Assembly: GCA_030606095.1 (NCBI GenBank)
Contig: JAUWHC010000001.1
Location: 1 to 41,094 of the forward strand
Length of the DNA stretch: 41,094 nt
DNA from: Promethearchaeota archaeon
GTDB taxonomy: Archaea; Asgardarchaeota; Lokiarchaeia; Sigyniarchaeales; SOKP01
Direction: 5' to 3'
The notes below the pieces were generated by a model. That model had not been told where the DNA came from. It ran no database searches and was given only the letters and a program-made list of their open reading frames with translations. Shown in pieces: positions 11,020-40,780 of this stretch. The translations under genes were made by a program, and so were the position numbers. How positions within the stretch are numbered: the first letter of the stretch is position 1; each line of letters opens with the position of its first letter.

Positions 11020-11185
11020 GCAGAGATAACCAAGCCAGGTCAAAGCAAGAATTATTTCTAAATAAGGAATAATAAAGCGGCAACCGGTGATGGACATTTT
11101 CAAAAACCATAATCTTTTGCGTTTTTGAACCACACTCAAGATCCATTGACATAGGTCTACAGGGGTTCAAATCCCCTTCTCTGCA
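11020..11185 (+). tRNA. tRNA-Leu(CAA) interrupted by two non-canonical introns (D-arm and anticodon stem/loop junction)
   Basis: Acceptor gcagaga (11020-26) pairs with tctctgc (11178-84); discriminator a11185. D arm is acc-aagccaggtcaaa, then a 41-nt insert (11045-11085), then ggt-g. Anticodon stem atgga (11090-94), then a ~40-nt insert (11095-11134), loop ctcaaga (caa at 11137-39), stem tccat (11142-46). Long variable arm tgacataggtctac; T arm agggg-ttcaaat-cccct. 166 minus 81 gives 85 nt, the class II tRNA size. A T-run follows. Confidence 0.8.
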
Positions 11186-23415: not shown

Positions 23416-24279
23416 TTATTTATCTAAATTTATAACTTCGTAATAAAAATCCTCTGGATTAGGAATTTCAACTCCGATTTTTTCAAAATAATTAAAAACA
23501 TTCTTAATATCTCTCACTAAATAAACTTCTGCTTTTGGATGAAATGTAGTGACTGCTTGTGAGATGTCAATTACAATTGGTTTTTGATTATGATATAAAA
23601 TATTAAATTCGGATAAATCACCATGAACTAAGTTTGCATTTTGATATAAGTTTTTAATAAAACCAAGAATTTCATTTAATAGTTTAATAGGTTCCTTTGG
23701 AAATTTTATATCTTTAAGTTTTGGTGCAGGAATTGATCCAAAACCAATATATTCCATAATTAAAATATTATTTTTTACATAGATTGGCTCAGGTACGCTC
23801 AAACCTGCTTTATAAGCCCTTTTAAGATTTTTAAACTCTTTACTTGCCCATAAAAATATAATTTTTGATATGTTATGTGGTATTTTTTTAAATCTAGGAT
23901 CTCCTATAATATAATTTCTCATCCATCTTGACGTATTACTATCAATCTTATAAATTTTTATCGCAACTTCGCGATTATCTTCACCGTAAGCAAGGTAAAC
24001 ATTTGCTTCCTTACCTGCAGAAATTATCCCTTCAATTCTGTTTAAACGGCCAATTTTTAATAATTTGTTTACTTGTAAATACATTCTTTCATCAAAAACA
24101 GAATCTACAGTGGCTCTTTTTTTAGTTTGATCAATTTTTTTAATTCTTATCGAATCAATCTTCTTTTTTTCTAAATCATCTAATCTTGTATTAAATTTTT
24201 TATTTAAAACATCATTTGAAACTTCTCTTTCAAGTTCTTCCTCATCTTTATCAATAAAATCATTGTTTTTTTCCTCCAC
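23416..24279 (-). CDS. RIO-type serine/threonine protein kinase (Rio1 family)
   Basis: ISAGKEANVY, VAIKIYK and LVHGDLSEFNIL catalytic loop, with an acidic/basic N-terminal extension. Confidence 0.9.
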   Translation of the reverse strand: MEEKNNDFIDKDEEELEREVSNDVLNKKFNTRLDDLEKKKIDSIRIKKIDQTKKRATVDSVFDERMYLQVNKLLKIGRLNRIEGIISAGKEANVYLAYGEDNREVAIKIYKIDSNTSRWMRNYIIGDPRFKKIPHNISKIIFLWASKEFKNLKRAYKAGLSVPEPIYVKNNILIMEYIGFGSIPAPKLKDIKFPKEPIKLLNEILGFIKNLYQNANLVHGDLSEFNILYHNQKPIVIDISQAVTTFHPKAEVYLVRDIKNVFNYFEKIGVEIPNPEDFYYEVINLDK

Positions 24280-25197
24280 TTAATCCCCCTCCATAATCCT
24301 TTTAAATGCTTTTTTATCATCAAAAAAAGAAAAGTTTTTTATAAGTTTAATATGGTTTTCATCTCTTAATAAAACCCTATTTTTGGTAATATTCTCCACA
24401 AAATATTTGGATTTGTTTATTAAAATATAGTCATTTTTTTTAATTGGTAAAAATTTTATAAGTGTTTTTAATCTATAGAGATTTCTTCCCTTTTGAGTAT
24501 CTCTCCCTACTAGCTTTTTTGTTCTTTTTAAAATAAAATTATATTTTGACTTTAAACGTGAAACGATGTGTTTCATTAACTCATTTGTACTTAAATACAA
24601 ATCCACACCAAGTTTTTGATCTTCCATTTTTGAAATATATTGTTTATCGTCTTTTTTAAAGATATTTTCTACAAAATAAAGGATATCATCCAAAACTTTA
24701 TTAATAATATCAAATTGATTCTCATTTTTTACCCGTAATTGAATAATTGATAAAAAATACATCCCCCCTCTTAAATTAGAACAATTTTTACATAATTCGT
24801 AATTTATTTTGACTTTTATCGTTTGTTGATGAGTAATTTTATGATCTTCCCTCAAAGTTCCTGTAATTGTAAGATCAAAAGAAGATAACAAATCTTTTTG
24901 AGTAAACATTAATTCTTCAAATGAGAATGAAAAGGTGATTAAATCTTGTTTTAAATAAGATTTTAATAAAAATCGAGATATTACCTCTTCTATAATTGGA
25001 AATAATTCATTTTCAGCAGGTTCAATCCATTCTTCTTTTTTTGAATATTTCCTGCAATCGGTGCACATTTTAAAACTGATACTTTTTGGCAATTCGAATA
25101 ATGGATTTTCTTTTAAAAAACAGTTAAGGCACATACCAAAATAAGGCGCGTTTTCTTCTAGAGCCGTTCCACATATTGCACAAAATCTATGAGGCAT
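24280..25197 (-). CDS. NMD3-family protein (60S export adaptor homologue)
   Basis: N-terminal double CxxC (FCAICG...CLNCF, CTDCRKY). Size and operon position next to Rio1 fit the family. Confidence 0.75.
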   Translation of the reverse strand: MPHRFCAICGTALEENAPYFGMCLNCFLKENPLFELPKSISFKMCTDCRKYSKKEEWIEPAENELFPIIEEVISRFLLKSYLKQDLITFSFSFEELMFTQKDLLSSFDLTITGTLREDHKITHQQTIKVKINYELCKNCSNLRGGMYFLSIIQLRVKNENQFDIINKVLDDILYFVENIFKKDDKQYISKMEDQKLGVDLYLSTNELMKHIVSRLKSKYNFILKRTKKLVGRDTQKGRNLYRLKTLIKFLPIKKNDYILINKSKYFVENITKNRVLLRDENHIKLIKNFSFFDDKKAFKRIMEGD

Positions 25198-25493
25198 TAA
25201 AACATCATTTTTATTGCCATTGGAATATTATTTATTTTTTTAACTCCTTCTTTAGGAAGGATTTTATGGGCAATTACCTTATTGGTTATATTTTCACCCA
25301 CTATATTAAAGTACGACACCTTTTTTAACAATTCTACTGCCTTATCTATGCTTAGAAGATCGCCCCCAAAAAAGTGTTCACTAATTTCGATTTTCAAATT
25401 TCCCTCAATAAAAATTTGGTTTAATAACAACTCATCGCAACATGCAACCGTATCGATACCATTTCGACGATGGATTTTAAGATATACTCTCAT
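25197..25493 (-). CDS. DUF424-family protein
   Basis: The ~98-aa protein MRVYLKIH....VACCDELL....FFGG fits the archaeal DUF424 pattern. It overlaps the NMD3 start by 1 nt. Confidence 0.6.
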   Translation of the reverse strand: MRVYLKIHRRNGIDTVACCDELLLNQIFIEGNLKIEISEHFFGGDLLSIDKAVELLKKVSYFNIVGENITNKVIAHKILPKEGVKKINNIPMAIKMMF

Positions 25494-25514
25494 CTGGCAA
25501 TCATTAAACTATCT

Positions 25515-25928
25515 TTATTTTTCTCTTATTTCTTCATGTGCTCCGCAAGCAGTGCATTTAAGAAATTTTTTTTTCCCTTCTCTTTGAATTTCTGTATCAG
25601 GCTTATTACAAATTTTGCATAATACATATGTTTTAGAATATAATTCAATTAACCGATTTAAAACTTGTTCTTTATAAACTCCTTTTAAAAAAAGATGTTG
25701 TCCCCTCATTTCTCCCATTGTACCTACTTTTTTTAAAAACTCTACAATGAAATGTTTTCGCTCGCGATTTAAAGTATTGATAATTTTATTAAAATTTATA
25801 ATATAAGTATTCTTAGCTTCTATTCTTATCTGAACTTTTGGTATTTCAAATCTAGATAATTTCTTTACGTTATCGGGGATATTTTCATAACCCTTGTCTA
25901 ATAATTCCTGATAATTGTTTATATCCAT
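25515..25928 (-). CDS. Translation initiation factor aIF-2 beta subunit
   Basis: FEIPK, YVLCKICNKPDTEI...LKCTACGA C-terminal zinc ribbon; about 137 aa. Confidence 0.9.
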   Translation of the reverse strand: MDINNYQELLDKGYENIPDNVKKLSRFEIPKVQIRIEAKNTYIINFNKIINTLNRERKHFIVEFLKKVGTMGEMRGQHLFLKGVYKEQVLNRLIELYSKTYVLCKICNKPDTEIQREGKKKFLKCTACGAHEEIREK

Positions 25929-26054
25929 TTTAGTTTACCTTTTTTTTACTTCTTCTACTAAATGTAATAATCTTTCTAACAAAAATACTTTTTCGATTTT
26001 AAAAAATTATTTGAAAAGACAATTCAAAAAAAAAGCTTCTAGTTAGAATTGTTT

Positions 26055-26783
26055 TTAGTAACTTTGATATATATTTTCCTCTGTTGGATAAATTCTTGAT
26101 TCCATCACTAAATCGTTAATATATGTCCTTAGCTTATTTTCGGGAATCTGCAACTTTGATTGTAATTCTTTAAGACTTATACCATTTCCGTCTTGAGAAT
26201 ATTCATATATTATCGAAAAAATCTTTTCTTTAAGTTTATCAACTTCTGAAGGCTGATCTTCTCCAAATATTTTGTCTATATCAATTCCATCTGAAATATT
26301 ATCAAAAGAGAATTCTTCGTCCGTTTCAAAATCAACAGGAATCTCGTGGATATCTCCAGATTTAATTTTTTTTATTATTTCAGCGTCTCGTAATAAGATA
26401 TAATTTGGATCTTTTACTTTTTTTATCAATTTGATATTACTAATTTGAACGGTATCGCCATAAAAACCTACTCTTCCTAAAATATCTACAATATCTCCTT
26501 GATTTAAATCGTTAAATTTATCTAAATCAACATCCCACTTGACAGCAGAAATTAAACCAGTTCCGTCATCCAGTTCGAATCTTAAATTGGTGCTTAATTC
26601 CCCTGTTGATGTATTGCTAACGAAATCCTCTCGATTAGTGATTGTCGCGACAAGACGAATTTTTCTGAGAGCTCCAAAGATCGTGAATAACGACTTTTCT
26701 TCAGCGTTATAATTCCCTTCTAAAAGATGTTTAACCCAACAACGAATTGCTGGAAAATATTCATAAGATTGAGTTCCACTCAT
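26055..26783 (-). CDS. RPA32/Rpa2-like protein: OB fold plus C-terminal winged helix
   Basis: OB segment IRLVATITNRE...LDDGTGLISAVKWD...GDIVDILGRV, an acidic linker, and a C-terminal WH GISLKELQSKLQIPENKLRTYINDLVMESRIYPTEENIYQ. Compare the eukaryotic RPA32 C-terminus ...EGHIYSTVDDDHFK. Confidence 0.6.
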   Translation of the reverse strand: MSGTQSYEYFPAIRCWVKHLLEGNYNAEEKSLFTIFGALRKIRLVATITNREDFVSNTSTGELSTNLRFELDDGTGLISAVKWDVDLDKFNDLNQGDIVDILGRVGFYGDTVQISNIKLIKKVKDPNYILLRDAEIIKKIKSGDIHEIPVDFETDEEFSFDNISDGIDIDKIFGEDQPSEVDKLKEKIFSIIYEYSQDGNGISLKELQSKLQIPENKLRTYINDLVMESRIYPTEENIYQSY

Positions 26784-26951
26784 AATTTAACTCATGTGAA
26801 ATTTCTATTATACAATCGATTACTATATTAACAAATTTTATGAAATATAGGCGTGATTATTAATTGTTAAATATAATTAATTTTCTCTTTATTTTAATTC
26901 ATTTTACATTTTTAAGGATTCTATCGTTTTAAGATAAAGAATAAAATAAAA

Positions 26952-27058
26952 TAGCGGGGACTGGAATCTCAGATTGCTGTAAATCAAACAAAATCTTTTG
27001 AACCAGTGTTCTCAGGGTTATGAGCCCTGCGGCATAAACCAGGCTAGCCCACCCCGCT
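26952..27058 (-). tRNA. Initiator tRNA-Met(CAU) with a ~31-nt intron in the T-loop
   Basis: Minus strand: agcgggg (A1-U72 pair) ... ccccgct + a. Anticodon stem caggg/ccctg has the three G-C pairs typical of initiators; loop ctcataa (atg on + at 27020-22). T stem actgg/ccagt (+ 27003-07 and 26960-64) encloses 38 nt (26965-27002) instead of 7. 107 minus 31 gives 76 nt. Confidence 0.8.
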
Positions 27059-27085
27059 AAGGTTTTTTCCTTATGAGAATAACTC

Positions 27086-27094
27086 TTTTTTATA
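27086..27094 (-). promoter_or_regulatory. Candidate TATA box for initiator tRNA
   Basis: The minus strand reads tataaaaaa about 29-36 nt upstream of the tRNA 5' end. Confidence 0.3.
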
Positions 27095-27215
27095 GATCAT
27101 ATAATTATTTTATCTTTTAATTTTTTATCATTTTTATGGAGATTATGGTGGTATTTTTTTAGTTTAAAATATATTAACTTACAATTATTTAAAATAAACA
27201 CATCTCTTAAAAAAA

Positions 27216-27953
27216 ATGGCGGATTCACATTCAAAAAGCTTTTTCGGGCAGAACACTGGGATGATTGTGAGTAGTCCCTCGAGCTCAGACCCATATATTT
27301 TTATACATTGCATTAAAAAAAAACCTGATGGAATTTGGGAAAAACCCTCTACCAATGAAGGTAAAATAATTAAAATTTCGTTAGAAGAGATCGTTATGAT
27401 CTTGCGAGTATTGAATCGTCAAACTCTAAATTGGCAAAGTCATCATATTTACAAGGATAAGAAAACTTCGTTATCTTTTAGTTGGGAAGATGAAGATGCA
27501 AATATATTGTGGATTAATATTGGAATTTATTCTAAAATGCTTAATCTTGCTCAAACGGAAATCTTGAGGTTATTATTGATTCATGTACTTAATGAAAAAA
27601 TAGTATATTCGACGGTACCAAAAAGAACTAACAACGAAAATAAGGTAATAAAACTCAAACAAGAGGAACTTTGTAATATGAATAAAATTGAAGAAATTAA
27701 TAAAGAAGCTGATTGTTATAAAAATAACCTTTTTTCTGACATAGAAATTCGAGGAGATATCCTAAAAGACTTGAGTAATGTCGATGGAATAATATTGGGA
27801 GAAACAGAAAAGGCTATTTTAATTGAATTCGACAATAAGGAGGTGTGGGTGCCGAAATCTACTATTAATAATCAATATCTCCCTCGAAAGAACCTTTCTC
27901 AAAAATTCTTGATTAATAATTGGTTTTTAAAAAAACATAATTTAATTCCATAA
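27216..27953 (+). CDS. Hypothetical two-domain protein (245 aa)
   Basis: The N-terminal ~130 aa and a C-terminal ~60-aa module (VDGIILGETEKAILIEFDNKEVWVPKSTI) are separated by a Lys/Asn-rich linker. No family recognised. Confidence 0.55.
   Translation: MADSHSKSFFGQNTGMIVSSPSSSDPYIFIHCIKKKPDGIWEKPSTNEGKIIKISLEEIVMILRVLNRQTLNWQSHHIYKDKKTSLSFSWEDEDANILWINIGIYSKMLNLAQTEILRLLLIHVLNEKIVYSTVPKRTNNENKVIKLKQEELCNMNKIEEINKEADCYKNNLFSDIEIRGDILKDLSNVDGIILGETEKAILIEFDNKEVWVPKSTINNQYLPRKNLSQKFLINNWFLKKHNLIP

Positions 27954-37444: not shown

Positions 37445-40780
<3,336 letters not shown>

Follow-up and report, generated by a model that had tools for sequence, protein, structure and literature searches.

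Can a gene for the tRNA that starts every protein be functional when its T-loop is interrupted, and how would the interruption be dealt with? The question is raised by a 107-nt locus in a 41,094-nt stretch of DNA (the window), which is contig C79 of a MAG of 2.88 Mb in 436 contigs (31% G+C; completeness 88.8%, contamination 5.1%). The MAG's neighbours in sequence space can be named from a protein encoded beside the locus, an NMD3-family protein that is 91-96% identical to proteins of 'Promethearchaeota archaeon' MAGs (Loki_b31, 33X4, ABR02, and others). A sequence-only reading of the window had suggested an initiator tRNA-Met gene with an intron of about 31 nt within or next to the T-loop. Drawing on a comparison of the locus with its relatives in the same archaeal order, we propose that it is very likely a functional, single-copy initiator tRNA-Met gene from which a 31-nt intron would be spliced between positions 59 and 60. 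We propose no new mechanism, and the gene exemplifies a phenomenon that is already documented in archaea. It does so in a lineage near the eukaryotic stem, where the tRNA starting every protein would be unusable until an intron is spliced from its T-loop.

An initiator tRNA gene interrupted in its T-loop

The gene lies on the minus strand and occupies exactly the coordinates first given for it (27058..26952), with A1 at window position 27058 and the discriminator base A73 at 26952; all coordinates of the gene and its flanking signals below refer to this strand. Its acceptor stem, AGCGGGG/CCCCGCU (27058-27052 with 26959-26953), supplies an A1:U72 pair, its D arm is GGCU...UGCC, and its variable loop is AGAAC. 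The anticodon arm, CAGGG-CUCAUAA-CCCUG (27029-27013), carries three G:C pairs (G29-31:C39-41), and its CAU lies at 27022..27020. All the marks of an archaeal initiator tRNA-Met (CAU, A1:U72, and the G:C pairs at 29-31:39-41) are present, including the A1-U72 pair and the GGG/CCC of the anticodon stem to which the sequence-only reading had drawn attention. The discriminator is an A, and CCA is not encoded in the genome at this gene. As that reading had also noted, the T stem, ACUGG (27007-27003) paired with CCAGU (26964-26960), encloses 38 nt and not 7. A split or permuted tRNA gene is ruled out, since both exons follow in their normal order on a single strand and fit within 107 nt.

Five sister species (G005, G009, G017, G021, and G106) share the exact architecture of the gene, and the alignment used to count variable sites in this clade consists of the present gene and those of G005, G009, G017, and G021 (5 sequences). 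The 5' exon (tRNA positions 1-59) lies at 26997..27058, is identical in all 5 aligned clade sequences, and contains the 5' strand of the acceptor stem, the anticodon arm, the 5' strand of the T stem, and the T-loop bases UUCAAA (27002-26997). It is followed by the intron, AGAUUUUGUUUGAUUUACAGCAAUCUGAGAU (31 nt, 26966..26996), which sits between positions 59 and 60. The 3' exon (positions 60-73, 26952..26965) begins with U60 and contains the 3' strands of the T and acceptor stems and the discriminator, as read from the sequence and the clade alignment.

The gene is flanked by what may be its own expression signals. A TATA-like box, CUAUAAAAAAG, is found 37-27 nt upstream of A1 (27085..27095) and is a candidate archaeal promoter. 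The block ATCTATA[A/T]AAAAGAG is kept across the 5 aligned clade sequences, and the leader that separates it from the tRNA is variable, with an 11-nt deletion in one locus (L002). At the other end, a T-rich tract (UUUUAUUUUAUUC..., 26927..26951) directly follows the discriminator, and the oligo-T tract immediately after A73 is conserved in the clade alignment. Archaea are known to use oligo-T terminators, and for this reason we read the tract as a likely transcription stop.

The interruption has consequences for detection. ARAGORN, run without its intron option, reported no tRNA in the window, and a search with Rfam at the gathering score missed the initiator gene, returning the 23S rRNA as the sole match in the window. 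In permissive mode (E<=10), the Rfam tRNA model matches the locus with only 19.1 bits and with its 3' half mis-aligned. Once the 31 nt are removed, ARAGORN accepts a 76-nt tRNA-Met(CAU); intron-less orthologues score 57-64 bits against the Rfam tRNA model, and the two from the same genus (L006 and L007) score 59 bits. The interruption explains why standard tRNA finders give no initiator tRNA for such MAGs. Given that ARAGORN obtains only 13 uninterrupted tRNA genes from the entire MAG, interrupted tRNA genes appear to be the norm in it.

Placement of the intron at 59/60

Where exactly is the gene interrupted? Acceptance by a tRNA finder is of little help here, because six registers (k=2-7) that remove 31 nt all yield a tRNA-Met acceptable to ARAGORN, which alone cannot place the junction. 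We therefore scored every register around the T-loop for the archaeal splicing motif (hBHBh'). The register at 59/60 is the only one with the full motif (H 4/4, h 5, h' 4); eight other T-loop registers were rejected, as none of them forms a BHB: they lack outer helices and reach no more than 3/4 H pairs. In the 59/60 register, helix h is the T stem itself (5 bp), and helix H pairs the exon sequence UUCA (27002-26999, U54-A57) with the intron sequence UGAG (26971-26968) through 4/4 pairs, one of them G-U. Helix h' pairs GAUU (26995-26992) with AAUC (26975-26972) over 4 bp, and the two 3-nt bulges are AA|A (26998-26996) and AU|U (26967-26965). When the intron was shuffled (n=200,000), H of 4/4 together with an h' of 3 bp or more was seen in 0.17% of cases. 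Excision at 59/60 leaves the 7-nt T-loop UUCAAAU, matching that of the intron-less orthologues L006 and L007. The suspected intron of about 31 nt within or next to the T-loop is thus confirmed, with the BHB register placing it at 59/60.

The agatt...aatct hairpin that had been described inside the intron is real as well, AGAUU/AAUCU being the minimum-free-energy pairing of the insert. When the T arm is folded as a whole, a structure with a 6x6 internal loop and the AGAUU/AAUCU hairpin reaches -11.2 kcal/mol, against -8.6 for the BHB conformer. The difference is slight, and the nearest-neighbour energy model penalises 3-nt bulges heavily. We do not count folding energy as support for the placement, because the BHB conformer is not selected by energy alone.

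Two other classes of intron were considered and rejected. A self-splicing group I or group II intron is set aside on the length of the insert (31 nt only) and on the Rfam search at E<=10, which gave a weak tRNA match alone. An intron bearing a C/D-box sRNA is set aside on the same length, with no RUGAUGA box seen by eye and no Rfam match.

Might the 31 nt instead be kept, so that the mature tRNA has an enlarged T-loop or an extra arm? The insert does fold into a hairpin of its own, as such an arm would, yet it sits in a perfect endonuclease motif that recurs across the family: 20/20 distinct homologous copies have H at 4/4 and h at 5/5 with bulges of exactly 3 nt, and h' shows covariation among these copies (GC/UA/AU at pair 1; AU/UA/CG/GC at pair 2). 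In addition, the orthologues that lack the insert have the universal 7-nt loop, and we looked for an alternative fold that keeps the insert and found none compatible with this conserved loop. A T-loop of 38 nt would also be expected to abolish the T-loop/D-loop elbow, which is required by ribosomes and initiation factors. We give almost no credence to a retained insert, and prefer removal of the 31 nt at 59/60.

Conservation of the gene and its copy number

Across the 5 aligned clade sequences, the exons have 0/76 variable sites and the intron 3/31, whereas the flanks have 57/312 (18%). Of the intron, the three changes affect the first base of the bulge and the upper part of the hairpin (stem and loop), and they touch no pair of H, h, or h'. 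The gene also keeps its place: across the genus, the order is the 245-aa protein, the tRNA, and the RPA-like OB-fold protein. Orthologous loci were compared, and in two members of the genus (L006 and L007) the gene has no intron, is 76 nt long, and has the T-loop UUCAAAU.

In the clade of six species alone, the T stem has changed from the family consensus GUUCG/CGAAC to ACUGG/CCAGU, a difference of three pairs, all of them fully compensatory (comparison set: L006-L023 and L038-L057). One variable-loop base of the clade also departs from the family consensus, and the T-stem and variable-loop changes all adjoin the intron. The remainder of the clade's mature sequence equals the consensus, which is itself 100% identical between several genera. 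A donor tRNA gene with the T arm ACUGG...CCAGU was searched for in the genome, and none was found.

Is there another initiator tRNA-Met gene that could do the work of this one? A blastn-short search of the MAG with the mature sequence found no second initiator copy, and a scan across the MAG for CAU anticodon arms with at least three G:C pairs returned this locus alone. Other candidate CAU tRNAs (on contig C294) do not have the GGG/CCC initiator marks. Each of the five sister genomes (G005, G009, G017, G021, and G106; 85-100% complete) has one initiator-type gene, including G005 and G017 (97-100% complete), each with one initiator locus. An intact second tRNAi-Met, the presence of which the sequence-only reading had named as a way in which its proposal could fail, was thus found neither in this MAG nor in the five sister genomes. 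An unassembled second copy is conceivable in this genome, given the MAG's completeness of 88.8% and contamination of 5.1%. As this is the sole initiator gene found, translation initiation very probably depends on the splicing of its transcript.

The incomplete assembly is also an argument for a different view of the locus, namely that it is a decaying pseudogene and that a working initiator lies in the roughly 11% of the genome that is unassembled. With a MAG in 436 contigs and a locus that standard tRNA finders reject, this deserves to be weighed. Nevertheless, a decaying gene is hard to reconcile with exons without a single variable site across five aligned species beside flanks that vary at 18% of sites, with a T stem changed by compensatory substitutions only, and with sister genomes of 97-100% completeness that have this one locus only. 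The conserved synteny, TATA-like box, and oligo-T tract speak against it as well. We consider a pseudogene very improbable and retain a functional, single-copy gene as our reading of the locus.

Splicing machinery and proposed maturation

The sequence-only reading had held that initiation would depend on non-canonical tRNA splicing. This is correct for the position of the intron, which is non-canonical, but not for its recognition motif, which is strictly canonical. Because the motif is of this kind, the mechanism would be ordinary archaeal EndA/RtcB splicing, and even an EndA of narrow specificity should suffice to cut it.

The MAG encodes two EndA paralogues, identified as PF01974 matches on two contigs (C121:468-1070 and C193:761-156). 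The alpha-like EndA (200 aa) matches the A. pernix catalytic subunit (3P1Z_B) over residues 20-200 with an E of 8e-34, keeps the catalytic His, and is gapless across the N-terminal region GSPLGISKPRLEYF. The beta-like EndA (201 aa) is closest to M. jannaschii EndA (1A79) and has Ser at the position of the catalytic His. RtcB is represented by a partial PF01139 match on contig C368, covering model positions 1-90 of 426.

An (alpha-beta)2 EndA with the L1 (crenarchaea-specific) loop has been described in Asgard and TACK archaea (Kaneta et al. 2018, PMC5829648). At the level of protein sequence, the two paralogues found here would fit the Asgard enzyme (PMC5829648): both are of about 200 aa, one has the catalytic His and aligns with the A. 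pernix subunit through the N-terminal loop region, and in the other the His is replaced. The strict BHB of the present intron would not call for an enzyme of broad specificity.

We infer the following course of cleavage, ligation, and further processing. In the precursor, the T stem (h, 5 bp) would be extended by H (UUCA with UGAG) and then by the h' hairpin, giving the hBHBh' motif. The two-subunit alpha/beta EndA would cut once in each bulge, and RtcB would join A59 to U60 and so restore the 7-nt loop UUCAAAU. The T-loop/D-loop elbow would form only after this joining. Since CCA is not encoded, a CCA-adding step would then be needed to complete the 3' end of the tRNA.

Distribution and origin of the 59/60 intron

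How widely is the initiator gene interrupted? Using the intron-less sequence as the query, we searched 150 genomes from the order and found the gene in 134. Among genomes of the same family with a match, an uninterrupted 76-nt initiator match is seen in only 8/119, so that an interrupted initiator is the rule in the family. The other matches break at 40/41 (the intron at 37/38), around 49-52 (in the variable region), at 62 (the intron at 59/60), or within the D loop. The genus by itself has eight initiator-gene architectures: no intron, an intron at 59/60 only, an intron at 37/38 only, introns at 37/38 and 59/60, introns at 37/38 and in the variable region, introns in the variable region and at 59/60, all three introns, and a variant with an anticodon-loop intron in a slightly different register. 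One syntenic gene with zero to three introns thus offers a natural series for studying intron gain and loss, along with BHB constraints, in Asgard archaea.

Outside the family, complete genomes carry the gene with an intron in the D loop (G032 and G051, loci L052 and L051) or at 37/38 (G038, locus L053).

In at least five genera, the 59/60 introns share an apical hairpin (GCUG-N5-CAGC / GUUGG-N3-CCAAC) together with CUGAAA, and the flanking intergenic DNA of these loci (L008, L010-L013, L016, L019, L038-L046, L055, and L057) cannot be aligned. The clade to which the window belongs has a shorter intron (31 nt), in which the apical GCUG/CAGC hairpin has decayed.

What, then, is the origin of the clade's intron? 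The 59/60 introns of genera g1, g12, g15, g16, and g18 have the core YUG-N5-CAGC followed by CUGAAA, and the intron of the clade can be aligned with that of a locus in the same genus, L038 (UUGAUUUACAGCAAUCUGAGA against CUGAUUUCCAGCAGAUUGAGA). L038 links the clade's shortened intron to the others, since the two have the core and the rare UGAG version of H in common. A tree built from two flanking proteins, which has long branches, shows a mosaic distribution of the 59/60 intron. A search of the genome for other copies of the intron, which would be a sign of transposition, found none.

We clearly favour one old 59/60 intron with several losses over repeated gains, a preference that depends on homology read from short alignments. 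The opposing view is that the intron of the clade is no descendant of an old family-wide one and was gained recently and independently at a BHB-permissive site. The mosaic of presence and absence on the flanking-protein tree would be expected of such gains, many terminal gains have been inferred in other Asgard classes (bioRxiv 10.64898/2026.10.13.758758), and the clade's intron is unusual in its shorter length, in the loss of the apical GCUG/CAGC hairpin, and in a T stem unlike all others. We nevertheless think a recent gain unlikely, given that the intron can still be aligned with those of other members such as L038, with which it shares the core and UGAG, and that neither the intron nor the T arm has another copy in the genome that might have been its donor.

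A stronger form of the favoured reading would be that a single old insertion, kept over a very long time in at least five genera of the family and having a conserved internal hairpin (GCUG-N5-CAGC), has been selected for a role of its own and is not a passive passenger. We regard this as quite doubtful. If it were so, the intron might gate T-loop modification and elbow formation, adjust the supply of initiator through splicing, or disrupt an integration site for mobile elements.

Relation to known tRNA introns

Position 59/60 is among the known sites of non-canonical archaeal tRNA introns (PMC4090602). The non-canonical BHB introns of crenarchaea (Thermoproteales) are one point of reference (Marck & Grosjean 2003; Sugahara et al. 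2007, 2008; reviewed in PMC4090602). Like them, the present intron lies outside 37/38 in an hBHBh' that is half exon and half intron, has a host with a two-subunit EndA, and would be spliced by proteins. Unlike them, it is hosted by an Asgard archaeon (Promethearchaeota), and its motif is strict rather than the relaxed hBH/HBh'. It also appears to be conserved in several genera, in contrast to Thermoproteales, where similar introns are found transposed from one tRNA gene to another.

Intron-rich tRNA genes are not new to Asgard archaea. Introns have been reported in 92-95% of the tRNA genes of Atabeyarchaeia and Freyarchaeia (Valentin-Alvarado et al. 2024, PMC11291895), and a census of Asgard tRNA introns found the canonical BHB to be strongly enriched in T-arm insertions and related genomes to differ by single introns (bioRxiv 10.64898/2026.10.13.758758). 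The present MAG resembles these published cases, in which introns are present in the majority of tRNA genes, frequently occupy non-canonical sites and the T arm, and sit at canonical BHB motifs. It differs in that the published studies centre on Jordiarchaeia and Atabeyarchaeia and report four to five introns, against one in this gene. The word 'initiator' is absent from both papers (PMC11291895; bioRxiv 10.64898/2026.10.13.758758), and 'Loki' and 'Prometh' are absent from the main text of the latter. Given these two absences, the family-wide conservation of the 59/60 intron of the initiator may be undescribed in the literature.

Initiator tRNAs have been taken apart in other ways, and Nanoarchaeum equitans has a split tRNA-iMet. 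The tRNA-iMet of Thermofilum pendens is permuted, and there too the T arm contains the junction (Chan et al. 2011, as cited in PMC4090602). Maturation of the present gene would, as in these two archaea, rely on EndA cutting a BHB, but its exons, unlike theirs, are collinear and contiguous on one strand.

Other features of the window

The sequence-only reading had further counted four of four tRNA genes in the window as interrupted, with 7 introns and none of them at 37/38. We checked this in part only: by eye, tRNA-Glu (23-124, with one D-arm insert), tRNA-Asn (161-325), and tRNA-Leu (11020-11185) are interrupted and consistent with the count. The tRNA-Glu(UUC) gene at 23-124 has genomically encoded CCA in addition to its D-arm insert, and it occurs a second time on another contig (C400:2503-2604) with identical scores, which may reflect a true duplicate or redundancy of the assembly.

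The initiator tRNA gene heads a minus-strand run (23416-26783) that encodes an RPA-like OB-fold protein, aIF2-beta, NMD3, and the RIO1 kinase. With aIF2-beta second in the run, the initiator tRNA lies two genes from a subunit of its own binding factor. Upstream of the tRNA, a divergent gene on the plus strand (27216-27953) encodes the 245-aa protein mentioned above, which has no Pfam match and whose position is kept across the genus (51-91% identity).

Enlarged expansion segments have been described for the rRNAs of Asgard archaea. The 23S rRNA gene of the window (37447-40779, plus strand) is 3,333 nt long, against an archaeal model of 2,987 positions, and so carries sizeable insertions.
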